Shown here piece after piece: positions 8,042 through 24,923 of a stretch of DNA of 64,000 nt. The notes beneath the pieces are model-generated. The model worked only from the letters and a program-made list of their open reading frames with translations. It did no database searches and was not told the DNA's origin. The DNA is taken from positions 19,486 to 83,485 of the forward strand of contig JBAZZV010000006.1 of the NCBI GenBank assembly GCA_041658645.1. The letters run 5' to 3'. The DNA is from Candidatus Margulisiibacteriota bacterium. Lineage in GTDB: Bacteria > Margulisbacteria > WOR-1 > O2-12-FULL-45-9 > XYB2-FULL-48-7. Positions within the stretch are counted from its first letter, which is position 1, and every line of letters begins with the position of its first letter. The position numbers and the translations under genes were made by a program.

Positions 8042-8049
8042 TCGGCAGT

Positions 8050-8556
8050 TTAGAAGCTAAGGCTCTGGCTGACCGAGCCGGTCGCGTAAGCGTTATAGGA
8101 TGAAGTCGTTATATTCGTATGGTTCAGATCGGGCATCATGACCCGATATTCCACGCCGGCCGAGAAACCGTTCAATTCAAACTTGATACCGGCTTCACCC
8201 TGGCCGCCGGAAGTTTGGGTCGAAGCGCCGCCAACCGTGGTCGTATTGTAGCTGACCCCGGCCCCAACATAAGGGCGGATCAGCCCGGCGATCGTCTGGC
8301 TATATATCAAGTCGACGGAGACCGGCATATAGGTAACATCGATCCCGCTCGCCTTGTAGGTAGTCGTCTCCACCATCCCCCGGAGCGCCAGGTTTGGAGT
8401 AATGGCATAATCAGCCGACGCGCCCAGCATGACCGAAGCGCTGTCGGCGCCGGAACCGTTATACATACCGGCCCGGCCTGATAAATTTATTGTACCGGCC
8501 AGAACAGGGGCCACCGTTAAACAAACCAGGGACAAAACAAGCGCAAACTTTTTCAT
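8050..8556 (-). CDS. Outer-membrane β-barrel protein (OmpW/OmpA-like) with signal peptide
   Basis: Start MKKFALVLSLVCLTVAPVLAG, preceded by GGAGGTG RBS; alternating amphipathic strands; C-terminal ...SLSF. Confidence 0.7.
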   Translation of the reverse strand: MKKFALVLSLVCLTVAPVLAGTINLSGRAGMYNGSGADSASVMLGASADYAITPNLALRGMVETTTYKASGIDVTYMPVSVDLIYSQTIAGLIRPYVGAGVSYNTTTVGGASTQTSGGQGEAGIKFELNGFSAGVEYRVMMPDLNHTNITTSSYNAYATGSVSQSLSF

Positions 8557-8602
8557 AGGAGCACCTCCGGATAAATAATACCATATGATATACTTGATTG
8601 CG

Positions 8603-9253
8603 ATGAAAAAAATCCCCATCGACCTGATATTTTTCGATCTCGACGGGACACTGACCGACTCGATCCCGCCGGCGATCACCGCTATTCAGAAGATGATGCG
8701 CGAGCTCGGTTATCCGGCCAAATCCGCCGCCGAGATCCACCGTTTCGTCGGTTTCGGCGAGTTCCCGCTGATCACCGGTTCGATCGGCACTGAAGAGCCG
8801 GAGAAAGTTTCTGCCGCTATGCGCCTTTACGAAAAATATTACCAGGAAGAGGGACTGCTCCAAGTCCCGCTCTACCCTCACGTCAAGGAGATGCTCGAAC
8901 ACTTTAAAAGCAAAACGAAAGTGATCATTTCTAACAAAAAAAGCTCTTTCATCCACATCCTCCTCCGGAACCTCCGGATCGATCATTATTTCAAAGAGGT
9001 CCTCGGCGGCGACAATTCCCCCTGTCTCAAGCCCGACCCGTGTGCCATCCTGGAGCTGTTGAAAAAATACGGCGTTCCCAAAGAACGAGCGGTCCTCATC
9101 GGCGACATGACGGTCGATATCGAGACCGGCCGGAACGCCGGCATCCAGACTTGCGGCGTCACTTATGGTTTTGACGGGCCAGAAAAGCTGGCCGCGACCA
9201 AACCGGACCTCCTGCTCGACGATCTAATGAAGCTGACGGGGTCGATCGAATAA
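8603..9253 (+). CDS. HAD-superfamily hydrolase (phosphoglycolate phosphatase-like)
   Basis: FFDLDGTLTDS motif I, ...SNK motif, GDxxxD motif IV; alternative upstream ATG at 8585. Confidence 0.75.
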   Translation: MKKIPIDLIFFDLDGTLTDSIPPAITAIQKMMRELGYPAKSAAEIHRFVGFGEFPLITGSIGTEEPEKVSAAMRLYEKYYQEEGLLQVPLYPHVKEMLEHFKSKTKVIISNKKSSFIHILLRNLRIDHYFKEVLGGDNSPCLKPDPCAILELLKKYGVPKERAVLIGDMTVDIETGRNAGIQTCGVTYGFDGPEKLAATKPDLLLDDLMKLTGSIE

Positions 9254-9840
9254 TGAAGATCACTACGCTCAAAGTCGGCTCGATCCGGACCAACTGTTAT
9301 ATCGTAGAAGATGAAGCGACGAAAAAAGCTCTGGTCATCGATGCCGGGGCGGAGCCGGAGCGGATCCTTGGCTTGCTCCAGAAAAACGGGTTAAAGCTCG
9401 AGTTGATCATCGCCACTCACGGCCACTTTGACCACCTGGAGGGGGTTCGCCGGCTCAAGGAAAAAACCGGCGCCCGTTTCCTGATGCACCAGGCCGATCT
9501 GTTCGGCTTGAAAACGACCGACGCCCCCCAACCGGACGGCTTCCTGGCTGATTCAAATACTTTTGAAGTTGGAGGTTTGAGGTTTGAAGTTCTTCACACG
9601 CCTGGCCACAGCCCCGGAGGGATCAGCCTGTATAATGAAAAAGAGCAAGTCCTGTTCAGCGGCGATACTTTATTCCAGGGGACCTACGGCCGGGTCGACC
9701 TCCCCTTTTCGGATGAAGGAAAAATGATCAATTCGCTCCAACGTCTGCTTAAATTACCTCCGGAAACGGTCGTCTACCCCGGCCACGGGAACGCCACGAC
9801 GATCGGGGCCGAACGGAACGTAATTAAGACCGCCTGGTAA
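9253..9840 (+). CDS. MBL-fold metallo-hydrolase (glyoxalase-II/YcbL-like)
   Basis: HGHFDH motif, FEVLHTPGHSPG, downstream D and H ligands. Confidence 0.8.
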   Translation: MKITTLKVGSIRTNCYIVEDEATKKALVIDAGAEPERILGLLQKNGLKLELIIATHGHFDHLEGVRRLKEKTGARFLMHQADLFGLKTTDAPQPDGFLADSNTFEVGGLRFEVLHTPGHSPGGISLYNEKEQVLFSGDTLFQGTYGRVDLPFSDEGKMINSLQRLLKLPPETVVYPGHGNATTIGAERNVIKTAW

Positions 9841-9857
9841 TGTGATATAATTTCCTC

Positions 9858-10778
9858 ATGAACCTATTTTCCGCCTTTTTAGTGATCGCCGGCCTTTGTT
9901 TATTTGAGATCATCTCGAGCATTGATAACGCCATTATCAACGCCGAGGTCCTGACGACGATGGGCCAAAAGGCGCGGCGCTGGTTCCTCTTCTGGGGGAT
10001 CCTGTTCGCGGTTTTCGTGGTCCGCGGTTTTCTTCCCTGGCTGATCGTCTGGGCAGTCAATCCCGCGCTCGGCCCGCTCGGCGCGCTGACCGCCACTTTT
10101 TCCAACGACCCGTCGATCGTGGCAGCGGTGGAAAGCTCGGCCCCGATCCTGTTGGCCGGCGGCGGGATATTCCTGGTCTTTCTTTTCCTCCACTGGCTTT
10201 TTCTGGAGGACAAGAACTTTGGCCTCCCCAGGACGGAGAAGTTCTTCCTTCGCCAGGGGGTCTGGTTCTACGCGGTCGTCTCCGTCCTGCTGACGCTGGT
10301 CGCCTGGTTCGCGCTGCAGCGCGACGCGATGATGGCCTTCGGGGCGATCGTCGGCTCGTCGGCCTTTTTCATCACCCACGGCTTCAAGCAAAACGCCGAG
10401 GAGAACGAAAAGAAGCTGCTGGGCAGCGGTTTTTCGGACATCAGCAAGATCTTCTATCTGGAGATCATTGACGCCACTTTTTCGATCGACGGGGTGCTGG
10501 GGGCGTTCGCCTTCACGATGTCGATCCCGCTGATCCTGATCGGGAACGGCTTGGGCGCCATAGTCGTCCGCCAGTTAACGATCGGCGGCATCGGCCAGAT
10601 CAAGAAATATCTTTATCTGAAAAACGGGGCAATGTACTCGGTCCTGGCGCTCGGAGTGATCATGCTGTCGCGCGCTTTCGGCGTCCACCTGCCGGAATGG
10701 CTCTCCCCGGCCATCACTTTCGGCGTGGTCGGCTTCTTCTTCTACAAATCACAGCTAAATTTGGCCAAAGAAGTATAG
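9858..10778 (+). CDS. DUF475/TerC-like integral membrane protein
   Basis: 306 aa, polytopic, duplicated SIDNAI / SIDGVLGAFA motifs. Confidence 0.55.
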   Translation: MNLFSAFLVIAGLCLFEIISSIDNAIINAEVLTTMGQKARRWFLFWGILFAVFVVRGFLPWLIVWAVNPALGPLGALTATFSNDPSIVAAVESSAPILLAGGGIFLVFLFLHWLFLEDKNFGLPRTEKFFLRQGVWFYAVVSVLLTLVAWFALQRDAMMAFGAIVGSSAFFITHGFKQNAEENEKKLLGSGFSDISKIFYLEIIDATFSIDGVLGAFAFTMSIPLILIGNGLGAIVVRQLTIGGIGQIKKYLYLKNGAMYSVLALGVIMLSRAFGVHLPEWLSPAITFGVVGFFFYKSQLNLAKEV

Positions 10779-10840
10779 TATAATAATTCCGGTCATGACT
10801 TCAGTCCCGAGCTCACTCGGGACACCCAGACCTCACTATT

Positions 10841-11938
10841 ATGTTAGTCCAGATAGATTTTGAGAAAAAGCCGCTGCTCTTCACCTCTCCGCTGGAGGTC
10901 ATCACCTGCCGGGAGCCGGCCAAACTGGCCACAACTTTCACCGCCATGGAGAAAGCCTTGGCCGCGGGTTATTACCTGGCCGGCTTTATCTCCTACGAAG
11001 CCGGCTATGCCTTCGAAACGAAATTAAAAGATAAAGATCATTACGATTTCCCTCTGGTCCAGATGGGCGTTTATCACGCTCCGTCAACAAAGTCGTCAGT
11101 CGCTTGCCGCCTGCCCCGAGCGAAGTCGAGGGGTCTGTCGTCTGTCGTCTCGAATCCTACCCTCAACCTGACCCGGGAAGAATATTACGCCAACATCGGC
11201 CGGATCAAGCATTATCTCGAGATCGGCGATACTTATGAGATCACCTATTGCGTCAAGTTCCGTTTTGAGACGAACGACCAACCGTACGCGCTTTACTCCG
11301 AACTCCTCCGGAAGCAACCGGTCCCCTATCCAGCCTATATTGAGACCGACCGCTATAAGCTCCTTTCGCTCTCACCGGAACTATTTATGAAAAAAGAGGG
11401 GTCCTTCATCACCACCAAACCGATGAAAGGGACTTGGCCGAGGAGCCGCGATCCGTTCGGCGGGCTCCGCCTCCATTTCGACGGGAAGAACCGGGCGGAG
11501 AACGTGATGATCGCCGACCTTCTGCGCAACGACCTGGGGCGGATCGGCTCCAATGTCCGCGCCCCCAAACTTTTCGAGGTCAAACGCTACACGACACTTT
11601 ACCAGATGACCTCAACGGTCACCGCCACTATCCCCACTGATATCCCGCTTTATCAACTCTTCAAGGCGCTCCACCCCTCCGGCTCGGTGACCGGCGCGCC
11701 GAAGATCCGCTCAATGGAGATCATCCGGGAGCTGGAGAACGAAGAGAGAAAAATATATACCGGCGCGATCGGCTATATTACGCCCAATAAAGACCTCTTT
11801 TTCAACGTCCCGATCCGGACGATCTTATTGGAAGGGGAACGCGGAGAAATGGGGGTAGGCGGAGGCATTGTCTGGGACTCGACTCCGGAAGGCGAGTTCG
11901 AGGAGTGCCGGATCAAGTCAAGATTCTTGATGGATTAA
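10841..11938 (+). CDS. Chorismate-binding enzyme, aminodeoxychorismate synthase component I-like (short PabB/TrpE family)
   Basis: 365 aa; C-terminal chorismate-binding signature LSPELF..., TTKPMKGT, GAPK, GAIGY, GGGIV; internal region 11090-11170 shares a motif with 26946-26976. Confidence 0.75.
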   Translation: MLVQIDFEKKPLLFTSPLEVITCREPAKLATTFTAMEKALAAGYYLAGFISYEAGYAFETKLKDKDHYDFPLVQMGVYHAPSTKSSVACRLPRAKSRGLSSVVSNPTLNLTREEYYANIGRIKHYLEIGDTYEITYCVKFRFETNDQPYALYSELLRKQPVPYPAYIETDRYKLLSLSPELFMKKEGSFITTKPMKGTWPRSRDPFGGLRLHFDGKNRAENVMIADLLRNDLGRIGSNVRAPKLFEVKRYTTLYQMTSTVTATIPTDIPLYQLFKALHPSGSVTGAPKIRSMEIIRELENEERKIYTGAIGYITPNKDLFFNVPIRTILLEGERGEMGVGGGIVWDSTPEGEFEECRIKSRFLMD

Positions 11939-13965
11939 AATATTTGAGGCAAAAAATGCGCCGCCCCGATGTGGCCGGCTTCTTCCGCGCTTTCGGCAAT
12001 GTATAAAAGATTTACGCTTATTCCCCGCTTTTTTAATTCCGCTTCCGCCGTCCTGATGATCATTTCCGCCGCCTCTCCCTCAATAATCGAACCCATCAAG
12101 GCTGCATTTTCTATATCGTAATAATTTAAAAGCTCAACGATCGAGGCCGCGGCATATCCGCCGATTTCCTGGTATATCTTTCGGGCATCTTCTCTCCCCT
12201 CGCTACTTGCGCCCGCCAACATTTCTTTTATTTTTACTGGCGCGCTATTTTCATCAAGCTGGTATTTTTGGAGCAAGCCATGCTTGCCGGCCAAATGCAC
12301 GATCCCCCGAAATGACAAGTAATTTCCCATCCGTCCGCGATAATACGGATCCGCTTGCGCCTCATCGGTCATGTTGACCCTGACTTTATTGTAACCGTTA
12401 AAACCCGAGGGAACGGCTCCCGCCTGGTCCACATAACCGGCGCACAGGGTAGTTCCAAAACGCAGCGCTAAAAGGTTATTCTTTCTCAACTTTTTATGTA
12501 AATGCAAAGCCAGCAGGTTCCCATCATTATCGACCAGGCAGGGAATTCCATTGAATTCGGAAGAGATCAATTCCGGCAGCCTGCTCCAGGTATTCATGCT
12601 GTTGGGAGTAAAATCCCTGATCACTCCCAGCGGGATCTTTAGCGGCCTGCCGTCTTTAACCGAAGACGCGACAGAAACTCCAATCGCCTCAATCGAAACT
12701 TGACTAAGACCGACTACCCGCCTGGCATTTTCCAATATCCTGGCGATTAAACCGTCCGCATCGCTCCTCTCGCCGCTCTTTCCCCAAGTCCTCATTTCAA
12801 AGAATTTTCCTACCGGCTCGATTTCACCGGTTGAGCCAATTTTCATGATCGAGATCCTGGTCTTGGTCTGACCGATATTGATGCCCAAAACCGTCCCGGG
12901 CATTCTTATAACTGATTTTTCCCGGTCAGTGACAATGCTTCCCGCCGGATGAGTTTCGATAAAAGAAGAAACATCAAACAGCCCCATCATCTCCTTGATC
13001 GAATAACGCCCTAAACTATTACCGCCGTACTCGTTATATTCTTCGTCAAACCTCGCGGCAACCATTGGCGGCAGATCCCTAAAATCAGATTCTATTTTGA
13101 TCCCGGCGGCGCCGAAACAGACGGCATAATTATTTATTACCGCGGCCAAATAACGCGAAACTATTCTTATGATTTCAGGAGGAGCGACTCTTGGGATTTG
13201 GATCATGAATTTCTTTTCGCTGCCGCCGCCGTTAAAGCTCACCTCTATTGAGCCAAATTGGTCCGGACGGGCCGCGGCAAAATCGGCGATTGCCACAAAT
13301 GCGTCATGCCAATCGGCAATTATCGGCTTTTCGTTTAATTCCAGCATTTTCTGATTTGCCCGGCCAACTGCGGCTGGTCCGGCAGCATCAATTGTTCGCG
13401 GGCTTTCTGCCATCACCGGTACGCCTTCATCCAGCAAACGGGCAATGCTCTCTGCCTTTTCGCCGCCGAAGAATGCCAGTATTTGCCCGACTTTCATCCC
13501 GCCATCGTGGCTCAATTTGACGATCGTTTTTAGAATCTTTACGATTTCGAGTTCTTCGCAGTTATTAAACAATGTGCGCATGATGTAAAGTCCGGTCTGC
13601 TCGAAATGAGCTCTTTCAAGCATTCTGGAGGTATCTTCGGGATATCTTTCCGCGGCCGCCAAAACTATTGGCGCAACGTCTGACGGATAATGAAATGAAG
13701 CAAAAGATACTATGTCGTCAGCAACGAAAACGAATTCCCGTCCACGCCATCTTTTTTCGTGGAAATTTCCCAGGGAATGAAGAACCTCCGCCGCATACTC
13801 CGGCTGCCAACTGGTCAGCCGATGCGCCGCCCTAGAAACATAACTTAATCTTAAATAAGCGGCATCGTCTTTTATTTGCTTATTTAACGCGGCAACCTTA
13901 AGACAGCTCCTCAGATCAGCGGCTGGTCTTGTATTTTTCTCGCCCCAAAGAATATTTGCTCTCAT
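11935..13965 (-). CDS. Large hypothetical protein with C-terminal ROK/BadF-type sugar-kinase-like ATPase domain; lower GC than surroundings
   Basis: 676 aa; C-terminal half with GINIGQTKTRI, GVSVAS, DNDGN motifs of ROK/ASKHA fold; N-terminal ~330 aa unassigned. Confidence 0.5.
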   Translation of the reverse strand: MRANILWGEKNTRPAADLRSCLKVAALNKQIKDDAAYLRLSYVSRAAHRLTSWQPEYAAEVLHSLGNFHEKRWRGREFVFVADDIVSFASFHYPSDVAPIVLAAAERYPEDTSRMLERAHFEQTGLYIMRTLFNNCEELEIVKILKTIVKLSHDGGMKVGQILAFFGGEKAESIARLLDEGVPVMAESPRTIDAAGPAAVGRANQKMLELNEKPIIADWHDAFVAIADFAAARPDQFGSIEVSFNGGGSEKKFMIQIPRVAPPEIIRIVSRYLAAVINNYAVCFGAAGIKIESDFRDLPPMVAARFDEEYNEYGGNSLGRYSIKEMMGLFDVSSFIETHPAGSIVTDREKSVIRMPGTVLGINIGQTKTRISIMKIGSTGEIEPVGKFFEMRTWGKSGERSDADGLIARILENARRVVGLSQVSIEAIGVSVASSVKDGRPLKIPLGVIRDFTPNSMNTWSRLPELISSEFNGIPCLVDNDGNLLALHLHKKLRKNNLLALRFGTTLCAGYVDQAGAVPSGFNGYNKVRVNMTDEAQADPYYRGRMGNYLSFRGIVHLAGKHGLLQKYQLDENSAPVKIKEMLAGASSEGREDARKIYQEIGGYAAASIVELLNYYDIENAALMGSIIEGEAAEMIIRTAEAELKKRGISVNLLYIAESAEEAGHIGAAHFLPQIF

Positions 13966-14123
13966 AAATTAATCACTATGATATATCCCTAATTAACAGG
14001 GAAAATTTCATAGTTATTTTATTTAAGAAAACTGAAAAGCCATTGAGCTTGAAATATCTTGATTTTTTTACAATTGGCCCCCAGTCCCCTGAAATCCCCG
14101 CAATAATTCACGGATAATAGATC

Positions 14124-14741
14124 ATGAAACCCAGCTCAATATCAGAGCCGGCCCCGGCAACGGGGAAACATTATAGATCGAGGATCACTCTGGCCGAACG
14201 AGCGCAGATTGCGGCGCAGGAGCGGACGATCGGTCTGGAGCAAGCGCGGGCGCACTGCAACTTAGCTCGGTTCGAGCTGGGCGGCAACCAATTTCAATTA
14301 TTTCGCAGCGGAGGATTCAACGATCCGGAGCTTGTAGCGCTGGTCGTTTCACATCTAGGTTCTGTATTTAAAGGTTTTTCGATCGGACTTTTTTTTACGG
14401 ACAACGATGGGACCACTTTTGTTCATGCCATGGTCGCGGCGGCCGGAGCTATCCATTCGTCAAGTCTTTATCAACCCGCCAAAACAGCACTCGAACTCTT
14501 CAAGCTCTGTTTCAATATTAAGGAGGGCCGCATGGAAATGAGCCATATAGAATCCAAGATACTGGGCAAAGGCGGCCAGGCTCTGATCGCGCTCTATAAT
14601 ATTGCCCGTGAGTATGGAGCCAAGATCATCAAATATGACGTCCGCGCAGCCAACCGGCCCGCCCAGTGTTTATATGCGAATCTGGGTTTCGGTACCCCCA
14701 ATAGTTGGCGTAACCAATGGATCGTTAAGATCATCCCCTAG
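14124..14741 (+). CDS. Hypothetical protein with C-terminal GNAT acetyltransferase-like region
   Basis: 205 aa; C-terminal ...GAKIIKYDVRAANRPAQCLYANLGF resembles GNAT core; the gene sits exactly between a 33-mer and lipoprotein upstream sequence that are contiguous in the second copy (16277-16320). Confidence 0.45.
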   Translation: MKPSSISEPAPATGKHYRSRITLAERAQIAAQERTIGLEQARAHCNLARFELGGNQFQLFRSGGFNDPELVALVVSHLGSVFKGFSIGLFFTDNDGTTFVHAMVAAAGAIHSSSLYQPAKTALELFKLCFNIKEGRMEMSHIESKILGKGGQALIALYNIAREYGAKIIKYDVRAANRPAQCLYANLGFGTPNSWRNQWIVKIIP

Positions 14742-14803
14742 TCCCCAATCAAAATTACGAATGATGAATGCGGACTGCGGAATAATTCTGTTATAATACG
14801 TCC

Positions 14804-14989
14804 GTGAAAAAGCTCTCGATCTTTTTTAGCCTGATAACGCTACTTTTGATCACTCTCTACGGTTGTGGCCAAAATAGCCAACCCTCAACCGGTCCGATTT
14901 TCACCGACCCCGCGACTAAGATCGCCGAGCTTTCGACCCAGGACTTTACTATTAAGATCTTTTACGAGGCGGTGGCGCTGGAGCCGTAA
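14804..14989 (+). pseudogene. Truncated N-terminal duplicate (61 codons) of the lipoprotein gene at 16376-17113
   Basis: 14742-14990 is ~90 % identical to 16311-16560, including upstream region, GTG start and lipobox LITLYGCGQ; stop after ...ALEP. Confidence 0.7.
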
Positions 14990-15052
14990 AGTGGTATAAT
15001 TACACACGAGCGGTTTTATAGGATCAGGAATTCGCATTACGGGGAGGAAAAA

Positions 15053-15613
15053 ATGAAGATATTGAAATGGTTTCTGATCGTTGTCCTTATCGTCATCGCC
15101 GCCGTGCTCTCTTTTCTCTGGTACCTGGGAGTTTTCAGCACTTTAAAAGTCAGCGAGAGGGAAATGGGCCCCTTCACCATCGCTTATAAGCATTACGTCG
15201 GGGAATATAAGGACACCGGCAAGGTCTTCATGGAAGTCTCTAATGCGATGAAAGATCTCGGCCTGGAGGTTTCTAATAAATCGGACAGCCTCGGCATCTA
15301 TTATGACAACCCGGCCACGGTGGCAAAAGACAAATTGAGAAGCGACTGCGGCATCGTCATTGCGGGCAAAGACCTGGCCAAAGCCCCGGCCCTGCTGAAA
15401 AAGGGCCTCAAAGTGATGACCATTGGGAAAAAGCCCTGCGTGGTGGCCGAATTCCCCATTCGAAACGTGATGTCATTCATGGTCGGCCCGGCCAAAGGCT
15501 ATCCCGCGCTGGCTAAATACGCCGCGCAAAAAAATCATAAAGCAGGCCGGATGTACGAATTCTATGACATGAAGAATAATTTGATCCTCTTCACGCTGGA
15601 GATCGCCAGGTAA
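15053..15613 (+). CDS. Membrane-anchored GyrI-like (effector/small-molecule-binding) domain protein
   Basis: N-terminal TM helix, then GyrI-like pattern incl. GIYYDNPATV...RSDCGIVI. Confidence 0.55.
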   Translation: MKILKWFLIVVLIVIAAVLSFLWYLGVFSTLKVSEREMGPFTIAYKHYVGEYKDTGKVFMEVSNAMKDLGLEVSNKSDSLGIYYDNPATVAKDKLRSDCGIVIAGKDLAKAPALLKKGLKVMTIGKKPCVVAEFPIRNVMSFMVGPAKGYPALAKYAAQKNHKAGRMYEFYDMKNNLILFTLEIAR

Positions 15614-15665
15614 AAAAGGACGGGCCGGTAAAAAAATGCATGCCCGGCCGGAAAACGGCGGCAGA

Positions 15666-16220
15666 TTAAGCTTTAATATTTTCAGCCAGGCGAAAAAAAC
15701 GGCCGAGTGTTCTTTTATCCGCAAAATCGTAACCGTGACTATGATACACAAAGTCGCAGGAAGTCACAACATTCTGCTTTTTGCCGATCAAAGTTGACGT
15801 TAGTTCATACCCGCTCACTGATAATTGAGCACCCAAAATCTTATAGGTGTCATCCAATTCGGTCATGTTCAGCAGCCGAAATTCGCGGCCGGGCTCTCTA
15901 TTCCGCCACCCGATATAAGCCATGGCATCCTCATAATTGATGCAATCCACGGAAGCACCGGCTTTGCCTCTTTTTACAAGAGAAATAAGTGGCCGCGCGT
16001 TGTCCCCCGTGATCTGATAGTCGGACTCTTTGACGAATTTACGGAATTGGCCGACCGTGACTTCGCCTCTCATGACCCTGTATTTTTTCCCCGGGATCTC
16101 GATCATTTCTTCGCAACGAGGGCCCCTGCTACCCCTAACCGGCCCAAGCCCGGCCAGCCGCTGCGCCGGCAATCTTACTCCTGATCTTTTTATTTCCATA
16201 TATATCTTTCTCCTGTTCAT
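15666..16220 (-). CDS. FGE-sulfatase/SUMF1-family-like domain protein (short)
   Basis: YRVMRGEVTVGQFRKF...SVDCINYEDAMAYIGWRN resembles the FGE-sulfatase family fold; only 184 aa, possibly truncated. Confidence 0.4.
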   Translation of the reverse strand: MNRRKIYMEIKRSGVRLPAQRLAGLGPVRGSRGPRCEEMIEIPGKKYRVMRGEVTVGQFRKFVKESDYQITGDNARPLISLVKRGKAGASVDCINYEDAMAYIGWRNREPGREFRLLNMTELDDTYKILGAQLSVSGYELTSTLIGKKQNVVTSCDFVYHSHGYDFADKRTLGRFFRLAENIKA

Positions 16221-16375
16221 ATGTATATTGGAAAATAAATCGGGAGATTTCAGGCAATCTTAGCCAACCGAAAAGTCAGTCCCCTGAAATCCCCGCGATA
16301 ATTCACGGATTAGTCCCCAGTCAAAATTACGAATGATGAATGCGGACGGCGGAATAATTCTGTTATAATACGTCC

Positions 16376-17113
16376 GTGAAAAAGCTTTCGATCTTTTTTA
16401 GTCTGATAACGCTACTTTTGATCACCCTCTACGGCTGTGGCCAACAGAATCAAAGCTCCACCGGCCCGATTTTCACCGACCCCGCGACCAAGCTCGCCGA
16501 ACTGGCCAGCCAGGACTTTACTGTTAAGCTTTTTTACGAGGCGGTGGCGCTGGAGCCGAAGCTGAACCAGGCCGGGGTCCGGGCCAGCATCGGTTTCTGG
16601 TCGCGCTCGCCCAACCGGGACAATCTGGTCGTCCTCCTGAACACGATCAACGCTTACGTCTCAACCGAAACCTATCGGGCGATCTGGGATGAAGGGACGA
16701 CAACCGCTACCGCCCAGCAGTATCCCTCTTACATCACCATGAACAAGGAATACTGGTATGAGCGCGCTTATCCGTTAAGCGACGGGACAGTTTCGATCGA
16801 AGGGGCCCACTACGCCGACCCGCATCCGGTCACGACGCTCGAGGCGGACCTGATCTGGGGAGCTTATTCCCAGCGCTACACCGACACAGCCAAACTGATC
16901 CGGCAGGCGACCGGCATTACGGTCGAATCGTGGTGTTTTGTTCAGGGTGCGCGGGCGCCAAGAATATTCTACGCTTTCGAATTGCCCGAATTAGTCTCGC
17001 TGGAAGCAACCGGGGATGTCTACGTCCATTTCGCTACGACTTATGAAGCCAGTTGGTTAAACGCGAGCCAGTGGATAACAGGGACAACGAATGCCCCGAC
17101 GCCGGAGCCGTAG
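16376..17113 (+). CDS. Lipoprotein of unknown function (full-length copy); GTG start 6 nt after TATAAT
   Basis: MKKLSIFFSLITLLLITLYGCGQ lipobox; TATAAT 16364-16369. Confidence 0.7.
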   Translation: MKKLSIFFSLITLLLITLYGCGQQNQSSTGPIFTDPATKLAELASQDFTVKLFYEAVALEPKLNQAGVRASIGFWSRSPNRDNLVVLLNTINAYVSTETYRAIWDEGTTTATAQQYPSYITMNKEYWYERAYPLSDGTVSIEGAHYADPHPVTTLEADLIWGAYSQRYTDTAKLIRQATGITVESWCFVQGARAPRIFYAFELPELVSLEATGDVYVHFATTYEASWLNASQWITGTTNAPTPEP

Positions 17114-17136
17114 AATAGATGCTTACACTACTTAAA

Positions 17137-17826
17137 TTACTTTCCTGTCGTTTGTAGTGTAAGAATTATTTCTTGCGCCTCTTTCTCACGCATAACCAAA
17201 TGCGCCTTTGACCATTCCAGGGCCGCAATAATGGCCTTCTTCCAGGGTTTAGGCAATTCTTCATAGTAATCAATGATTAGTCGTTTGTCACTCGCCGTTA
17301 GCGCGAGTATCGCATGTTCAAGGTCTTTGCGTTTCTTATCTGTATTCTTTCTTCTGGCCGCGATTAACAGCTTGTGTAGTCCAAAACAAACCATATTCGG
17401 GACCAAAACATCAATGCTCTGTTCTTTTACCCATACCGGATTTTTAAAAAGGATATCAACAAATCGTAAAGGGATCGCCTTAATGCTTAGGTTCCTGACC
17501 TCTTTCGCCCCAACCTCTCCCCGACCCCTTTCCGGAGTCAAGAACTCTACTTTTAGATCTGTCCCCCACATATAGATCGAACCATCTGAATTAAACCCGG
17601 TTTTGAAACCCAATGGGGCCAACAACGCAGCAATATCAATTTTATTTTTGGCTTTATATGGGCTGGGGATAAGAAAATCAATATCTACAGTCCTAAAAGG
17701 ATACGCTTTCACGCCAAAATGTTTCTGATAAAGAAGAAAACACCAGCTACCGATCAACTCGACACCCTCATCCCATAAGCCGTTTTCCTGAAATACTCGC
17801 AATATTTTATGAACAATGCCGATCAT
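17137..17826 (-). CDS. Nucleotidyltransferase-fold protein (AbiEii/GSU2403-like putative toxin)
   Basis: 229 aa; ...FRTVDIDFLIP... NTase-like segment; ATGA overlap with upstream small gene. Confidence 0.5.
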   Translation of the reverse strand: MIGIVHKILRVFQENGLWDEGVELIGSWCFLLYQKHFGVKAYPFRTVDIDFLIPSPYKAKNKIDIAALLAPLGFKTGFNSDGSIYMWGTDLKVEFLTPERGRGEVGAKEVRNLSIKAIPLRFVDILFKNPVWVKEQSIDVLVPNMVCFGLHKLLIAARRKNTDKKRKDLEHAILALTASDKRLIIDYYEELPKPWKKAIIAALEWSKAHLVMREKEAQEIILTLQTTGK

Positions 17827-18128
17827 TTTTGCTTTTTTCTGCCTTTTGTTCTATTTAATATCTTGATCATTTCCTTTGTTTTTTTTAATTCCTTTATCAA
17901 TTTCATCCTTTCGTTTATTTTCTCCTTTATTTCCTCCGGCTCATCCTTTCCCAGGTATTTGTGAACCACTTTCGGCCCTCTCCTGACTTGAAGATAATAA
18001 TAATTCTTTCCGCCGATTTTCCTCTTCTTGACGCTCCCTTTAGGCAGGCGCCCTAAACGGGCGATGATCTTTTTCTCAGTCTGGAGATAATAATCCATGC
18101 TTTCCTTTAAGATATCTTTTAAAACCAT
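17823..18128 (-). CDS. Small basic partner protein of the NTase gene (putative antitoxin/regulator)
   Basis: Start MVLKDIL preceded by AGGAGG; KIGGKNYYYLQVRRG motif; 5' part of the six-frame ORF up to 18248 is probably untranslated. Confidence 0.45.
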   Translation of the reverse strand: MVLKDILKESMDYYLQTEKKIIARLGRLPKGSVKKRKIGGKNYYYLQVRRGPKVVHKYLGKDEPEEIKEKINERMKLIKELKKTKEMIKILNRTKGRKKQK

Positions 18129-18140
18129 CACACGCCTCCT

Positions 18141-18180
18141 TACACTACATTTGTAGATTATATCGGCTTTGTAGTGTAAT
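18141..18180 (-). promoter_or_regulatory. Palindromic operator TTACACTACA...TGTAGTGTAA flanking a TATAAT -10 box upstream of the NTase-partner operon; a second copy of the same inverted repeat lies at 17123-17165 just past the operon stop
   Basis: Minus-strand reading ttacactacaaagccgaTATAATctacaaatgtagtgtaAGGAGGcgtgtgATG. Confidence 0.5.
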
Positions 18181-18263
18181 AGCAAGCGGCTATTCAATCG
18201 GCTGCTTATTGCCCAACAAATATCAAAATATGGTATTTTGTTGGGCAACTAGCGTTAAGCGGT

Positions 18264-18461
18264 TTGCGTTTCGAATCGTGGTGTTTTGTCCAGGGTGCGC
18301 GGGCGCCAAGAATATTCTACGCTTTCGAATTGCCCGAATTAGTCTCGCTGGAAGCAACCGGGGATGTCTACGTCCATTTCGCTACGACTTATGAAGCCAG
18401 TTGGTTAAACGCGAGCCAGTGGATAACAGGGACAACGAATGTTCCGGCTCCGGAACCCTAG
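18264..18461 (+). pseudogene. C-terminal duplicate (65 codons) of lipoprotein gene 16376-17113
   Basis: 18262-18461 ~97 % identical to 16921-17113. Confidence 0.75.
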
Positions 18462-18970
18462 TTTCCGGCCCCCTGTCCCTGACCTCCTTCATTATAAATC
18501 ACTTTTCGATTCCGATTATCCATGAACGAAACCGTAAACGGCGCGTTGAACTTGGTGCGATTGCCGGCTTTATCGGTCATGATAATGTGAAAATTAAACT
18601 TGCCGTCGGACAGGGTCGCGATCGTCCAAGCGACGTTGAGCTTCTTCCCTTTTTTGAGATTGGCGGCAGCTAAGACATCTCCGGTTAGACGCTGCCGGCC
18701 GTTCCCCATCCACGCCTCGACTTCGACGCTGACATCCTCGTCGGCGGAAAACGTCATGACCGGCAAATTAGTGGGGGTCATGACATTTTGAGGGGAAACG
18801 GTGGGCCGGAAGAGAAACCCGGGCGGTTTTTTATCAATAATTTTTTTCTTTAACTTCGTGTTTTTAACCGGTTGTTTGGCGATCTTTTTGACGGCGCCGG
18901 CTACCGGACCGGCTCCTGGCAGGAGCGAGAAGGAAAAAAGAACGATCACCAGGTAGATAATTGATCTCAT
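18458..18970 (-). CDS. Secreted hypothetical protein
   Basis: Start MRSIIYLVIVLFSFSLLPGAGPVAGA (signal peptide); no known domain. Confidence 0.5.
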   Translation of the reverse strand: MRSIIYLVIVLFSFSLLPGAGPVAGAVKKIAKQPVKNTKLKKKIIDKKPPGFLFRPTVSPQNVMTPTNLPVMTFSADEDVSVEVEAWMGNGRQRLTGDVLAAANLKKGKKLNVAWTIATLSDGKFNFHIIMTDKAGNRTKFNAPFTVSFMDNRNRKVIYNEGGQGQGAGN

Positions 18971-19246
18971 GGGCCTAATTGTAGCCCTTTCTGTTGAGGG
19001 AGACAAGTCAAACCCCCAATCCTCGCCCCCAACCGGCTCAAAGCTCCTGACCCACGCCTCCAGCAATCCCGAAACCCTGGCGACCGGATACCCTTTAACG
19101 GTCCTAGCCGGCACAGCCTGGGCCTATCTCCTCCCAATCGTGATAATCGGCATTTTGTTGATGGTCACGTTTAAAGAGCACGGGAAATAGAAGGGAAAGT
19201 AGCCCTAGTATCCGCCTGGACATCAATAGTGAGGTAAAATTCGGGG

Positions 19247-19630
19247 CTAGTTTTCCGTCGCGCCTAAATAAGCGAACGATTGTGGCGGGCATATGCCATA
19301 CTTGGATTTAATATCATACGACTCTTCATACTTAATATAATTTTTTATTTTAATCGCATATCCGGTTTCCTTCCCGCAAAAATAGTCATGAAAATAATCC
19401 ATTGATATTCCCGCGAACATTTTAGTGTTTTCCCACAAAGAATGTAAATCATCTGATATTATTGATTCTATTTCGAATTCCCCGATCACCCTCCCCACTG
19501 GTGCTGACGCGTAAACGACGACTCGATTTACGCCCTTCCTTTTAAATATCGCTCGCCTAAATTCATACTTTTTTTCCCCGCAAAATATCTTGTCAGCATA
19601 TTCCGGCTTAATGGATAATAATACTTTCAT
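19247..19630 (-). CDS. ASCH (PUA-like) domain protein
   Basis: MKVLLSIKPEYADKIFCGEKKYEFRR... matches ASCH N-terminal consensus; low-GC; 23-nt overlap with upstream PIN gene. Confidence 0.65.
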   Translation of the reverse strand: MKVLLSIKPEYADKIFCGEKKYEFRRAIFKRKGVNRVVVYASAPVGRVIGEFEIESIISDDLHSLWENTKMFAGISMDYFHDYFCGKETGYAIKIKNYIKYEESYDIKSKYGICPPQSFAYLGATEN

Positions 19631-21134
19631 TTGTTTTCGTCTCCTTTAGGATTAGATTAAGTTGATCTTTGCTAATTCGTGCAAACCCCCTTGGCGCCGA
19701 ATCAATATCTTTTATAATTTTTAAGTCTATTAGCTCCTTCAGGTTTAATCGCCTAGGGAATGAGTATGCACAAAGGAAATATACTACAAATGGGCGCCTC
19801 CCAGGGTTATAGTTCCACCATCCTGACAGCTCCTCTCGCGTAAATACACTTCGCTTCCCACACAATTCAATAAATCTTTCTTCATTTTCGATGTTGTCCT
19901 TCACCCCTTCGATTATACCGATTGTAGTAATTACAGACTTGAAATATCCCCCGGTTCTATAGAATACGATTAAGTCCCCTCTTCTTATGTTCCTTTCGAT
20001 TGATCTGCTTATGTAAACCTTACTAATCGCGTTACGAAATGGCTTGTCACCTTCGTAGTCCTCGGGCAATTCTGTTCGAAGGATCGAATCAGGCAAGAGA
20101 GTGGTATGATATTCTGGATATATTGGAGTGATAAATATATTATTGTCTGCCGAAATATAAGGGAAAGTAATTTTGGGCGCAGTGGGATTAAACTTTGGCG
20201 TAAAATCACGCACACACACCTCCTCCACGTCCCTGCAACTTGATGATTTTTTGTAACCATAATGATTGAAACCGAATTTCCTTAATAATTCTTTCAATCT
20301 CAACCTTTCAATACGCTCGTCGCAAATAGTCACATATATTTCTTCGGCCTTAAATAGTAGCGCGTGGTCAAAGACAATTTTCAAGAACCGTTCTCCCAAA
20401 TTAAACCCATTTGCGGCCACCTTAAATGTGCCGATTTTTAATCTTTTTTTACTGGCAAAAGCCGGTTCGATATCCGGGTATTTTTCCCCCTTATTCTCTA
20501 TTTTGATGTATAAAAAAGCTAATATTTTCTCATCCTGCATACAAACATACGCATCATCTTCTGATTTTCTATTAAACCAATCATCGAATCCGGGATAATC
20601 TTGTCTTAATGAATCAAAAAATTCATCTCTAATGTTTAAGTTGCCGAAATGCTCTTTTCTTACAGATAAAACCTTATAATTTATCAATGATGGATTCTCA
20701 GCTCTGACTCTTGCCAAAAACCCATCGATTGTAAAAACCGATGATGCTAGGCCAAGCCGGATCGCCTTATCATGAACACCACCATCTTCACTAATTAACA
20801 GGTCGACCCTTTTATTCATCAACTCATTCAACAACAAAGAATCATTAGTATCATTCTCGTTTTTGTCTAGCGGGAAACAGAGAGATTCAATCAATGGGTG
20901 GATAGGCGCTTTAGTTCGTAATACCGTATAACTTCCCAGCTTAATAAGAAAAGCTTTTACTGTTTTTGGGTCACGATGTTTTTCAATTTCCTCAACCGAA
21001 AGTGGGTGCGCACATTTAACAAAGTGCAAATCATCAAGCCATTTGAATAAAATGCCGATATCTGGGTCGACTGGGGTCGTTGCCTCTCGATGAATGATAA
21101 TATTCGTATCGAGTAAGACTTTTTTCCCTGTCAT
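19608..21134 (-). CDS. Multidomain protein: N-terminal PIN nuclease, central GNAT-like acetyltransferase, C-terminal PUA-like (ASCH/EVE-like) region
   Basis: VLLDTNIIIHRE + downstream acidic residues (PIN); ...ILAFLYIKIEN...RLKIGTFKVAANGFNLGERFLKIVFDHA...LLRKFGF (GNAT-like); RGDLIVFYRTGGYFKSVITTIGIIEGV (PUA-like); ~38 % GC. Confidence 0.55.
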   Translation of the reverse strand: MTGKKVLLDTNIIIHREATTPVDPDIGILFKWLDDLHFVKCAHPLSVEEIEKHRDPKTVKAFLIKLGSYTVLRTKAPIHPLIESLCFPLDKNENDTNDSLLLNELMNKRVDLLISEDGGVHDKAIRLGLASSVFTIDGFLARVRAENPSLINYKVLSVRKEHFGNLNIRDEFFDSLRQDYPGFDDWFNRKSEDDAYVCMQDEKILAFLYIKIENKGEKYPDIEPAFASKKRLKIGTFKVAANGFNLGERFLKIVFDHALLFKAEEIYVTICDERIERLRLKELLRKFGFNHYGYKKSSSCRDVEEVCVRDFTPKFNPTAPKITFPYISADNNIFITPIYPEYHTTLLPDSILRTELPEDYEGDKPFRNAISKVYISRSIERNIRRGDLIVFYRTGGYFKSVITTIGIIEGVKDNIENEERFIELCGKRSVFTREELSGWWNYNPGRRPFVVYFLCAYSFPRRLNLKELIDLKIIKDIDSAPRGFARISKDQLNLILKETKTNESIIIH

Positions 21135-21209
21135 TTATAGCCGAATTCTACGCTCTTTACAGGAAATAGCAAGCTCGGCCCTGAGTTCTATTGACAAGCA
21201 AATATAGCG

Positions 21210-21989
21210 GTGGGAGAATCTCCCCTGAACCTATTTTTGGGTAATAACATGACAAAGAACAAAAGAGCGTTTAAATTTCTTAGCGATTACATTAGACATT
21301 TAGAAAATGTAATTGATGAGAATGGACTAACCTTATTTCGGGGATTGGGCAAGGACTACCCTCTAGTACCTCGAATTGCAAGGATATTACTTAAAAACCC
21401 TCTTACAGCGACAGAAAATAGAATGATGAGGGATTTTCAATTAAAAAGCAGACCCTTCTTATCTATTGTTCCAAATTCTAGCTGGGATTGGTTAGCCTTG
21501 GCCCAACATCATGGATTACCAACCAGGTTAATGGACTGGACTAACAATCCGCTTGCCGCGTTATGGTTTGCCGTAAAGGATCCTCCTATAAATAATAATG
21601 ATGGCATTGTTTGGATGTTCAACGTCAATAAAGCTGATGTCCTTTCAGAAGACGAGAAAAAAACACTTAGCCCCAATCGTAACGGTCAAACAAGAATTTT
21701 TCAGCCAAACCATATCGCCGACCGCATTGCGAACCAAGGCGCATGGTTCACGGTCCATAAGTATAATTTTAGTAGAACGACACATAACGGATTTGTCCCA
21801 TTAGAGAACATGAAACGATATAAGCACTGTTTGACGCGATACCGAATTCCAGCAAAATATTTTTATGACATTCGATTTCATCTCGACTTGTGTGGTTTTA
21901 ACCATGCGTCATTATTCCCTGGGTTAGACGGCCTATGTAAACATTTATCTTGGTATCATTCTCTGCTAGAAGATGAAATAGACAAGTAA
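21210..21989 (+). CDS. FRG-domain protein
   Basis: LFRGLGKDYPLVPRIAR and AQHHGLPTRLMDWTNNPLAALWFA match FRG hallmarks (YRGQ...L.PS..R; QHYGLPTRLLDWT); low-GC; divergent from PIN gene. Confidence 0.7.
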   Translation: MGESPLNLFLGNNMTKNKRAFKFLSDYIRHLENVIDENGLTLFRGLGKDYPLVPRIARILLKNPLTATENRMMRDFQLKSRPFLSIVPNSSWDWLALAQHHGLPTRLMDWTNNPLAALWFAVKDPPINNNDGIVWMFNVNKADVLSEDEKKTLSPNRNGQTRIFQPNHIADRIANQGAWFTVHKYNFSRTTHNGFVPLENMKRYKHCLTRYRIPAKYFYDIRFHLDLCGFNHASLFPGLDGLCKHLSWYHSLLEDEIDK

Positions 21990-22436: not shown

Positions 22437-22919
22437 TCAGAAATAAATGTGCACGCCGAGATTGCTGTTCAGGAAATAAAGCCAGGTCGTCCGGCTCCCG
22501 GCCGACATCTGGCTAAGGTAAGTGGCGAAAAATACCTTGCCGTCCAGCGCGACATGATCGTTAATAAAGACCTCGCCGCCGACAAAAGGATTGAACGCCA
22601 CCCGGTCAAAAGAGACGCCGGCACTAGAGCCCTGATTGTCCTGGACCGTCGTGCCGATCTCGAGCAGGGTGTTCGGATAGACCTCGCGAACATAAAAAAG
22701 CCCCAGCGCGAGGTTGTCAATATTGCTGTCAGCCTGGCCGCTCTGCGTGCTGTTAGAGTAAAAGACGCTAAGATCTAACCCAAAATTGTTGTTCACGAAG
22801 CCCCGAACACTTAAAGAGGTAGCCCGCAGGCCGACCCCGGTCTTGCCGCCCAGCTCCAGCGCCAGCGACGTGCCGGCCAGTAACGTGACCAGGAGCAGAA
22901 GCAAACACGCTTTTTTCAT
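22437..22919 (-). CDS. Small outer-membrane β-barrel protein (paralog 1)
   Basis: Signal peptide MKKACLLLLLVTLLAGTSLA; C-terminal ...HIYF. Confidence 0.6.
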   Translation of the reverse strand: MKKACLLLLLVTLLAGTSLALELGGKTGVGLRATSLSVRGFVNNNFGLDLSVFYSNSTQSGQADSNIDNLALGLFYVREVYPNTLLEIGTTVQDNQGSSAGVSFDRVAFNPFVGGEVFINDHVALDGKVFFATYLSQMSAGSRTTWLYFLNSNLGVHIYF

Positions 22920-22929
22920 GAATTTCTCC

Positions 22930-23415
22930 CTATAAATAAATGTGCGCGCCGAGCTCGCCGGTCAGGACGTTAAGCGCAGTCGACCTGGACCCGGCTTCCA
23001 TCTGGCTGCTGTAAGCGCCAAAGAAGACCTTGCCGTCCAGTCCAACGTGGTCATTGATAAAGCACTCCGCTCCGATGAACGGATCGAGCTCGAGGCCGCT
23101 GTAAAAGGTGCCGGCATCGTACCCCTGCCACCCCAGCACATTCACGCCGATCTCAAGCAGTGTATTGGGGTAGATCTCCCACGCCCTAAAACAGCCGAGC
23201 GAATAATCGTATTCGGTGCTGTCCTGCTGGCCGCTCCGGGTCCTGTTAAAATAACTGGCCGTTACATCGAAGCCCAGATTATTGTTCACGAAGCGCCGGA
23301 CCGAAAAGCCGCTAACCTGCAGGCCGAGCCCGGTTTTACCGCCAAGCTCCATCGCCATCGACATGCCGGCCAGCAACGTAACCAGGAGCAGAAGCAAACC
23401 TGCCTTTTTCATCAA
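22930..23415 (-). CDS. Small outer-membrane β-barrel protein (paralog 2, tandem duplicate)
   Basis: ~50 % identical to the neighbour; signal peptide; C-terminal ...HIYL. Confidence 0.6.
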   Translation of the reverse strand: MMKKAGLLLLLVTLLAGMSMAMELGGKTGLGLQVSGFSVRRFVNNNLGFDVTASYFNRTRSGQQDSTEYDYSLGCFRAWEIYPNTLLEIGVNVLGWQGYDAGTFYSGLELDPFIGAECFINDHVGLDGKVFFGAYSSQMEAGSRSTALNVLTGELGAHIYL

Positions 23416-24660: not shown

Positions 24661-24744
24661 ATCACTATGACTTCGCTGAAAATAACCGGGGATTTCAAGG
24701 GGATTGCCAAGCCGCTGTTCGCCATGTCATTGCAGTTAAATAAA

Positions 24745-24880: not shown

Positions 24881-24907
24881 TTCCCCCAAGCGATTAATTG
24901 ACTTCTC

Positions 24908-24923
24908 CGGTGTAATATATTAC
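24908..24923. promoter_or_regulatory. Perfect 16-bp palindrome GTGTAATATATTACAC plus extra GGTGTAA half-site, 25 nt upstream of the MNT gene (putative TA operator)
   Basis: Direct reading of sequence. Confidence 0.5.

Follow-up and report, generated by a model that had tools for sequence, protein, structure and literature searches.

The 64,000-nt window examined here, from a metagenome-assembled genome (MAG) of the uncultivated phylum Margulisiibacteriota, contains three copies of a lipoprotein gene with unrelated genes between them (Table 1). Only the second, lipoB, is intact; lipoA is a pseudogene and lipoC a displaced 3' fragment. The protein has a predicted signal peptide and LYGC lipobox, matched no Pfam family, and ends in a C-terminus that is conserved across relatives. 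In all 19 related loci, which come from other organisms, it is a single-copy core gene, the state that a preliminary description of the locus had proposed to look for; relatives with all three copies, the contrary case envisaged there, were not seen among them. Synteny in relatives is conserved as Chorismate_bind, lipoprotein, a variable interval and tsaD-gatC-gatA. The lipoprotein-to-tsaD interval, strain-variable and between 0.8 kb and about 9 kb long, carries PADLOC candidate defence systems in the window; it is a variable defence island and, as the preliminary description had it, an accessory-gene hotspot. The three copies are closest to each other (88% and 96%, against at most 73–81% for any other genome), and the nearest relative shares 82–86% protein identity. 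Searches of genomes and metagenomes for contigs above 86% amino-acid identity returned only re-assemblies of the same population. An empty site did not turn up in any near-isogenic genome, the 19 single-copy loci all lying at or below 86%, so we infer the polarity and order of the events described below.

Table 1. Features of the lipoprotein locus and of two further scars in the window.
Feature	Position	Strand	Remarks
34-mer, copy A	14082–14115	+	1 mismatch to copy B
ORF, 205 aa	14124–14741	+	weak GNAT motif, residues 145–191 only
Lipoprotein upstream/promoter region, copy A	14739–14803	+	97% to 16311–16375; TATAAT 7 nt before GTG start
lipoA pseudogene	14804–14989	+	codons 1–61 plus TAA
GyrI-like gene, 186 aa	15053–15613	+	N-terminal TM helix; 24.9 bits, just under Pfam cut-off; homologs annotated GyrI-like
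Short FGE-sulfatase-like gene	15666–16220	-	26 bits, above cut-off; partial domain
34-mer, copy B	16277–16310	+	imperfect inverted partner at 16234–16254
Lipoprotein upstream/promoter region, copy B	16311–16375	+	
lipoB, intact gene, 245 aa	16376–17113	+	conserved NAPTPEP* tail; single-copy core gene in relatives
D2 copy 1 (3' end of lipoB)	16923–17113	+	
Left palindrome of NTase module	17121–17163		CTTACACTAC-N22-GTAGTGTAAG
GSU2403-family nucleotidyltransferase-fold (NTase) gene	17137–17826	-	NTP_transf_8, PF12281, 79.6 bits against 26.3 cut-off; low GC
DUF6788 partner gene, 101 aa	17823–18128	-	start deduced from the gene calls in L015, L016 and L029
Right palindrome	18139–18180		CTTACACTACA-N20-GTAGTGTAA; overlaps best minus-strand promoter-like site (18185–18157)
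19-nt filler	18252–18270		separates lipoprotein fragment from the point where module homology stops (by L029)
lipoC, displaced 3' fragment	18271–18461	+	last 63 codons, tail NVPAPEP*
Second scar, 45-codon 5' pseudo-fragment of tsaD	24740–24876	+	76% to 25907–26036
Third scar, displaced 3' fragment of Pyr_redox gene 34889–36379	37951–38017	+	about 22 codons, 85%

Self-comparison of the locus recovered all three repeats of the preliminary description, with small corrections. The first, D1, pairs 14739–14986 with 16311–16558 (248 nt, 90.3% identity, E 1e-93; previously 14742–14990 and 16311–16560, ~90%), and D2 pairs 16923–17113 with 18271–18461 (191 nt, 96.3%, E 2e-85; previously 16921–17113 and 18262–18461, ~97%). 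What had been called a 33-mer at 14078 and 16277 is a 34-mer, CAGTCCCCTGAAATCCCCGC(A/G)ATAATTCACGGAT, correctly placed in its second copy but not in its first; it occurs only twice, with 0 matches expected in shuffled sequence. Divergence is uneven along both long repeats. The upstream part of D1 is 97% identical, versus 83–87% for codons 21–61, and in D2, which contains a 151-nt exact repeat, 170 of 171 positions agree between 16923–17093 and 18271–18441, whereas six of the last 20 nt differ (14/20).

The structure of lipoA is particularly informative. It has an internal deletion of 552 nt (codons 62–245) between CTGGAGCCG and CCGGAGCCG, and the break falls at GGAGCCG (codons 59–61), a repeat of the gene's own 3' terminus, after which the stop codon is read. 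Among 715 internal positions this is the only one that shares at least 5 nt (here 7 nt) with the 3' terminus. Because lipoA ends exactly at this sole internal match and then at a stop, it must once have been a full-length paralog, from which 552 nt were lost between short direct repeats; what was previously taken, at the right border of D1, for the end of a homologous fragment carried on a circle is instead a deletion within that gene. Comparison with lipoB (dS 0.34, dN 0.076, dN/dS 0.22) shows that the two diverged under purifying selection, and thus that each was still functional during most of that divergence. The stop codon of lipoC overlaps that of a convergent Big_13 gene (18458–19114). 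A small hairpin lies in the lipoprotein tail, with two rearrangement borders at its base.

In copy B the 34-mer runs straight into the lipoprotein upstream sequence; between the two, copy A has a 623-nt segment (14116–14738) that is absent from copy B. The preliminary description had placed a GNAT gene at this point. The segment is where it was said to be, but its assignment to GNAT is weak, with E 0.034 in Pfam and E 0.002 for rimI (limited to the residues in Table 1), and other gene callers report only a 103-aa ORF. Since it lacks a flanking duplication, the segment reads as a plain indel, of either polarity. The motif AGATCAT near both ends raised the possibility of a microhomology deletion, which we rejected as a deletion between these copies would not yield the sequence of copy B.

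The GyrI-like and FGE-like gene calls hold with qualifications, the FGE-sulfatase match being above the cut-off though partial, and the GyrI-like score falling just under it while homologs agree with the call. In another genome (L007) a full-length lipoprotein gene is followed after 69 nt by a GyrI-like gene, the same position as in the window, with a homolog that is 49% identical. Among the closest GyrI homologs L007 is the one case of this adjacency; P0057 and P0059 have different surroundings (MarR/DEAD helicase; Mrp-like operon), and GyrI-like genes elsewhere mostly lie in other contexts too. The starts of contigs L027 and L028, considered as possible lipoprotein remnants, are not lipoprotein-derived. 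The GyrI and NTase proteins served as queries for exact-protein look-ups.

The pair of genes between lipoB and lipoC, previously read as two NTases, comprises one PF12281 NTase and a small, adjacent and overlapping DUF6788 partner. NCBI names the former a GSU2403 family protein, a family on which our literature search found nothing; the latter is recorded as PF20586 for an identical product, although our own scan gave only E 0.07. The same palindrome brackets this module on both sides in the window, L015 and L029, and was found only at this module; its right copy is probably an operator, given the promoter-like site it overlaps. The module occurs in other genomes and contexts at 80% nucleotide identity. 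In L015 a full-length lipoprotein gene is directly joined to the NTase pair without duplication; judging from L007 and L015, the “cassettes” of the preliminary description are what normally stands beside a full-length lipoprotein gene in other genomes. In L029, which has no lipoprotein gene at that place, the module has other surroundings and comes with about 20 nt of lipoprotein tail. A Cys-rich ORF in L029 was tested for the lipoprotein's syntenic slot; synteny is scrambled, and replacement or deletion is therefore not separable from a circular or tandem-duplication intermediate. In the window, the left border of the displaced D2 copy (18270/18271) is sharp, follows the 19-nt filler, shows no evident microhomology, and is compatible with an arbitrary end of a homologous fragment.

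Similar scars are found elsewhere in the window. The tsaD 5' fragment lies upstream of an inserted PDC-M05 NTase/partner pair (24949–25897) and intact tsaD (25900–26949), and the Pyr_redox 3' fragment lies beyond one inserted minus-strand gene (36395–37885). The inserted genes are low-GC, candidate TA/defence-type modules. By their arrangement, D2 and both fragments fit homology-anchored insertion-duplication. Tandem paralogs are also present in the window, at 22437–22919 and 22930–23415.

We consider it probable that the lipoprotein gene was partly duplicated twice around accessory genes by general recombination, and that the copies then decayed; the locus is a known kind of recombination scar rather than a new mobile system. 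In this lineage the gene would have been duplicated at least twice through homology-driven insertion-duplication, whether by a single crossover with circularised DNA, by a homologous anchor combined with illegitimate joining of linear DNA, or by unequal exchange. Such events would have set alternative segments of lipoprotein plus neighbour one behind the other (lipoA-GyrI-FGE, lipoB-NTase pair, lipoC fragment-Big_13). Decay of the redundant copies would have followed, lipoA losing codons 62–245 between two 7–9-nt direct repeats and lipoC being reduced to its last 63 codons, and gene conversion would later have homogenised parts of them. No dedicated recombinase would be needed, the partial copies being scars. 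The repeats, the single copy in relatives, the signature of the deletion, the donor-type junctions elsewhere and the recurrence of scars are observed; the route of recombination and the succession of events are deduced from them. Several observations sit uneasily with this history. Differences are clustered in the D2 tail (6/20 versus 1/171), and the 3% divergence upstream of lipoA and lipoB contrasts with their dS of 0.34, so that gene conversion or local constraint must be assumed in addition; the GNAT-like indel is not explained; and GyrI-like genes mostly occur elsewhere, the homolog in L007 being only 49% identical.

That these repeats are an artefact, a contig chimera threaded through co-occurring strain variants of one locus, has in its favour that the genome is a MAG and that the 151-nt exact repeat in D2 is unresolvable by short-read graphs, whose contigs break there. 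We nevertheless regard it as very improbable. Independent assemblies from three datasets (ENA ERZ27247322 and ERZ27249422, Logan SRR8449812) reproduce every junction at 100% identity, namely lipoA deletion to GyrI, FGE to 34-mer, lipoB stop to NTase, and NTase flank to lipoC. One MEGAHIT contig (k=141) covers 5053–17083 with both D1 copies on it, and the copies differ in sequence and are thus not collapsed duplicates. The preliminary description, which had named such an artefact as one finding that would refute it, explained the locus by Campbell-type integration: three cassettes, each brought in by a single crossover of a circle, with repeat borders marking the fragment ends. As written, this is unlikely. 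The layout of D2, repeat-cargo-repeat, is exactly what it predicts, and it can draw on the natural junction of lipoprotein stop and NTase module in L015 and on the lipoprotein tail carried in L029; MEGAHIT contigs L016 and L017, which begin and end with the same 141-mer, form a graph loop compatible with a circle, although an integrated repeat exceeding k would be expected to produce it just as well. Not every cassette is bounded by a direct duplicate, however: the NTase pair (D2) and the GyrI/FGE genes (D1 and 34-mer) are, and the GNAT-like segment is not. Moreover, D1 is bordered on its right by the scar of a deletion between GGAGCCG repeats, and a simple single crossover predicts uniform divergence, so that the uneven identities of D1 and D2 require later gene conversion. 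Sequence alone cannot separate a Campbell-type circle from linear homology-facilitated illegitimate recombination (HFIR) or unequal exchange.

An origin entirely in situ, with an ancient tandem duplication like the staphylococcal lpl paralog array followed by unrelated indels and no horizontal input, would account for the mutual closeness of the copies, the purifying selection on lipoA and lipoB and the former full length of lipoA, and has a parallel in the other tandem paralogs of the window. We find it improbable, since no relative has more than one copy, the NTase module is low in GC and recurs in other genomes and contexts, and the accessory genes between the copies differ, each neighbouring single lipoprotein genes elsewhere; a tandem paralog family was likewise rejected on the one copy per locus in 19 loci. 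Hardly any weight attaches to a dedicated site-specific system, integron-like or an integrase-borne island, that targets the lipoprotein gene and recombines at the 34-mer, at the hairpin of the tail or at the CTTACACTAC palindromes. The palindromes do bracket the NTase module in three genomes, and two rearrangement borders coincide with the base of the hairpin. Yet the 34-mer occurs only twice, the palindrome only at the NTase module, where its coincidence with the operon promoter means that an operator role suffices, and the module junctions vary between the window, L015 and L029. An integron cassette array is contradicted by the lack of any integrase, transposase or IntI-like ORF in 11.9–25.9 kb, by mixed gene orientations and by the lack of a recurrent attC-like repeat at the locus; an island, by the lack of a recombinase and of an att-like site, by repeats of 191 and 248 nt, and by a region free of tRNA, Rfam element, integrase or transposase matches, with the nearest tRNA at 42764. 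A more speculative, and in our view doubtful, idea is recombinase-free “homology hitch-hiking”, in which each module carries a piece of the core gene next to it, loops out as a circle when the partial duplicates on its two sides undergo RecA-type recombination, and re-inserts by single crossover, regenerating the duplicates. Three scars in 64 kb, the L029 module with its lipoprotein tail and the graph loop at D2 are compatible with it, and if true, small TA/defence modules of these bacteria would spread without any recombinase, passing between related strains at one and the same core gene.

The locus, read as partial duplication by general recombination, reveals no new mechanism or system. It offers a worked example, set in an uncultivated phylum, of the build-up of accessory and defence genes beside a core gene by general recombination alone, and of the decay of the redundant copies thereafter. 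It also cautions that a truncated gene copy beside an insert need not be an integration border; here one such border goes back to a microhomology deletion of later date, so that the history has to be reconstructed differently.

This arrangement has counterparts in known systems. In the minimal mobile elements of Neisseria, cassettes without mobility genes of their own are swapped by homologous recombination (PMC3787668, PMC1797815), and from strain to strain the interval enclosed by the same conserved genes holds different cassettes, as here; the classical elements, however, are clean double-crossover replacements without partial flank duplicates. The tandem lipoprotein paralogs of the S. aureus lpl cluster (PMC2568036) and transformation-induced merodiploidy (PMC3784515) resemble our locus in that tandem lipoprotein copies recombine together and duplications arise from unequal exchange at repeats. 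Unlike in lpl, relatives carry the gene only once, and of the three copies at our locus, which have unrelated genes between them, two are truncated pseudogenes. The order of an intact gene whose 3' end is complete, a newly arrived module and a displaced orphan 3' fragment recalls the rhs/CDI C-terminal displacement arrays (Jackson et al. 2009, as cited in PMC5361080) and the sequential displacement of T6SS effector-immunity modules in Vibrio cholerae (PMC5361080), including its repetition at one locus without an integrase. In those systems the C-terminus is variable and the cargo a cognate immunity gene, neither of which applies here; we rejected a polymorphic-toxin reading because the lipoprotein C-terminus is conserved, and with no toxin or immunity family matched, only the layout agrees. 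HFIR and Campbell-type insertion-duplication are described for bacteria capable of natural transformation (de Vries & Wackernagel 2002; Prudhomme et al. 2002; both as cited in PMC5361080). Our case differs in being read from scars in a MAG, and no microhomology is visible at 18270/18271. What is shared is that foreign or allelic DNA would be anchored through homology to a conserved gene and joined illegitimately at its other side, leaving the cargo beside the anchor and, in some cases, a partial anchor copy; the donor-type arrangement expected under HFIR, with the anchor gene joined directly to the cargo, occurs in both L015 (lipoprotein to NTase pair) and L007 (lipoprotein to GyrI-like).

The direct duplications claimed for the lipoprotein locus in the preliminary description are all present in the window by self-comparison: D1, covering the upstream region and start of the gene; D2, a repeat of its 3' end; and a 34-mer, which had been placed four bases off, at 14078, and has no match in shuffled sequence (Table). 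In copy B, the intact gene, the 34-mer adjoins the upstream region directly, whereas in the truncated copy A 623 nt (14116-14738) separate the two. Part of the copy B 34-mer also pairs with a sequence located 22 nt upstream as an imperfect inverted repeat, within the promoter region between the divergent FGE and lipoprotein genes; the copy A 34-mer lacks such a partner.

Features of the lipoprotein locus and of other parts of the window
Feature	Position	Strand	Remarks
34-mer	14082-14115; 16277-16310		one mismatch; self-BLAST E 2e-8
D1	14739-14986; 16311-16558		248 nt, 90.3% identical; self-BLAST E 1e-93
Copy A, truncated lipoprotein gene	14804-14989
GyrI-like gene	15053-15613
Short FGE-sulfatase-like gene	15666-16220	minus
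Imperfect inverted repeat	16234-16297		13-bp stem with one bulge, ~27-nt loop
Copy B, intact lipoprotein gene	16376-17113
D2	16923-17113; 18271-18461		191 nt, 96.3% identical; self-BLAST E 2e-85
Palindromes bracketing NTase module	17121-17163; 18139-18180		CTTACACTAC/GTAGTGTAAG
GSU2403-family nucleotidyltransferase-fold gene	17137-17826	minus	PF12281
DUF6788 partner	17823-18128	minus	101 aa
Hairpin, right edge of NTase module	18210-18249		perfect, 12 bp, TTGCCCAACAAA-N16-TTTGTTGGGCAA
Defence islet	19247-21989		low GC (~39%)
Two tandem paralogous ORFs	22437-23415		160 and 161 aa; 72% nt identity; no Pfam match
tsaD 5' pseudo-fragment	~24740-24876		45 codons
Promoter-region palindrome, second NTase-type pair	24917-24945		GTGTAATATATTACAC; same GTGTAA/TTACAC core
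Pyr_redox scar	36311-38017		repeated end at 37951-38017
ORF with many tandem repeat copies	48407-50503	minus	698 aa; period ~117 nt, 75-85% identical

Independent assemblies of the same population, located by exact-protein look-up, reproduce all novel junctions, since their contigs match the window across them. A 33-kb MEGAHIT contig (L019) carries both D1 copies and matches 5053-17083 at 100%, L016 and L017 equal 16943/16953-18431, and two Logan contigs equal 17064-18320 (L018) and 14785-16378 (L020). Given the recurrence of each junction, an assembly artefact is very unlikely. The contigs break only at a 151-nt exact tract of D2, and the same 141-mer stands at both ends of L016 and of L017; such a graph loop is expected for any repeat longer than k and fits an integrated copy or a circle alike, so the assemblies do not discriminate between the two.

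The lipoprotein has an identical annotated counterpart in Candidatus Margulisiibacteriota MAGs, and scanning genomes, metagenomes and the protein database yielded 19 loci of other organisms with proteins 58-86% identical. Each (19/19) holds exactly one copy. The core order is TrkH-TrkA ... Lactamase_B-HAD-Chorismate_bind, lipoprotein, a variable interval, then tsaD-gatC-gatA. This interval measures 0.8-1.8 kb in two other loci (L002 and L003) and ~8.8 kb in the window, where its low-GC genes match the PADLOC candidate defence systems PDC-M11A/B, PDC-S15 and PDC-M05A/B; the proposal of a hotspot for accessory genes therefore holds. The islet at 19247-21989 encodes an ASCH protein together with a 508-aa protein, which match PDC-M11B/A (E 8e-50 and 1e-202), as well as an FRG-domain protein matching PDC-S15 (E 1e-81). 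Next to the tandem paralogous ORFs lies a gene for an NlpE-domain lipoprotein, syntenic in relatives.

Copy A ends in ...GCGCTGGAGCCG, directly followed by TAA. In the intact gene GGAGCCG occurs at exactly two sites, codons 59-61 and the last three codons before the stop, and a match of at least five bases to the 3' terminus occurs at just one of 715 internal positions, nt 183, where seven bases agree. Since this is the exact point at which copy A passes into its stop codon, the arrangement is the signature of a once full-length gene that has lost 552 nt in frame between short direct repeats. The right border of D1, previously read as an integration border, coincides with this GGAGCCG deletion scar. 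In another organism (L007) a full-length lipoprotein gene is followed after 69 nt (63 nt in the window) by a GyrI-like gene, order and orientation being as in the window. Copies A and B are mutually closest (88%, against at most 73% to any other genome), and their dN/dS ratio of 0.22 (dN 0.076) at a dS of 0.34 indicates that both evolved for long as functional genes. Identity across D1 falls from 97% in the 34-mer and upstream region to 93% for the first 20 codons and 83-87% for codons 21-61, a gradient that a single crossover would not give, suggesting either later gene conversion or a constrained promoter region. Nor is every insert bounded by a direct duplicate, as had been stated: the GNAT-like segment, the 623 nt of copy A, has none, and is therefore just an insertion in one copy or a deletion from the other. 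Its GNAT assignment has weak support from Pfam (E 0.034) and rimI (E 0.002), and other gene callers give just 103 aa.

Within D2, identity is 170/171 over 16923-17093, and the remaining 20 nt hold six differences, giving tails of NAPTPEP-stop in copy B (the form conserved in nearly all relatives) and NVPAPEP-stop in lipoC, the displaced 3' fragment. Because the lipoC stop overlaps that of the convergent Big_13 gene, facing lipoprotein and Big_13 genes are suggested as the original arrangement, with the NTase module (GC 37-44%) arriving between them, a polarity that we infer. The six differences, one compensatory pair among them, turn an imperfect hairpin (17093-17108, GCCCCG-ACGC-CGGAGC) into a perfect one (18441-18456, GTTCCG-GCTC-CGGAAC), which might terminate transcription of the convergent gene or be the product of quasi-palindrome correction.

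In a more distant relative (L015) an intact lipoprotein gene leads into the same module (74% nt identity) with no duplicated fragment, so the junction of lipoprotein stop and module occurs naturally elsewhere. Two further loci, L029 and L030, have a copy with 80% nt identity (84% aa for the NTase), and in L029 the sequence up to 16 kb from the module holds no lipoprotein gene. In both loci the left end of the module keeps the last ~20 nt of a lipoprotein gene (APTPEP-stop) and the same 8-nt spacer, the remnant being fused in frame to an internally deleted Cys-rich ORF (L029 8684-8920) whose L015 homolog (1665-2003) flanks the module at its other end. The module has thus been rearranged along with part of the lipoprotein gene, perhaps via a circular or tandem-duplication intermediate, perhaps by replacement only. 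Gene order around the module is circularly permuted between L029/L030 and L015; the hairpin at its right edge is conserved with substitutions in the former and absent from the latter.

Two copies of the palindrome CTTACACTAC...GTAGTGTAA(G) bracket the module, and the window holds five matches against 0.76 expected, counting one one-mismatch match elsewhere. Because the best promoter-like site for the NTase operon overlaps the right-hand copy, a putative operator role suffices to explain that copy. A dedicated site-specific system acting at the locus is unlikely, because no tRNA, Rfam element, integrase or transposase was found in 11.9-25.9 kb, the genes point in both directions, and the 34-mer and the palindrome have no further occurrences apart from that one-mismatch match. 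The best account is general homology-anchored insertion-duplication, which would strike core genes bordering variable DNA and leave redundant copies to decay, with gene conversion acting afterwards. The D2 layout may have arisen by Campbell-type single crossover of a circle, by linear homology-facilitated illegitimate recombination with the illegitimate join inside the resident gene, or by unequal exchange; all three would produce a layout of this kind, and the sequence fits each of them. Homology-driven duplication survives from the Campbell reading, and three Campbell cassettes with fragment borders do not. We consider it improbable that defence modules hitch-hike on core-gene fragments through circular intermediates without a recombinase.

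Self-comparison revealed two more scars of the same design. At tsaD, a 5' pseudo-fragment with a damaged start (76% identical to the resident gene, 81% to tsaD of L003) precedes an inserted HTH-NTase and partner pair (PADLOC PDC-M05A/B) and then intact tsaD (to 26949); this scar (24740-26949) mirrors the D2 layout. At a lipoamide-dehydrogenase-like Pyr_redox gene, a second copy of the last ~22 codons (85% identical) lies past one inserted minus-strand gene (496 aa, B12-binding/radical-SAM-like); like lipoC, the fragment abuts a convergent gene. In this genome, therefore, gene gain generally leaves an intact core gene, an insert and a displaced fragment of that core gene.

The layout resembles rhs/CDI C-terminal displacement and sequential displacement of T6SS effector-immunity modules, but the lipoprotein does not belong to the polymorphic toxins. 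In its behaviour the locus is comparable to the minimal mobile elements of Neisseria (PMC3787668), but retains partial duplicates; other parallels are transformation-driven merodiploidy (PMC3784515) and clusters of tandem lipoprotein paralogs (PMC2568036). Given these likenesses, the lipoprotein locus is a fresh instance of a genome-plasticity scar of an already known type.
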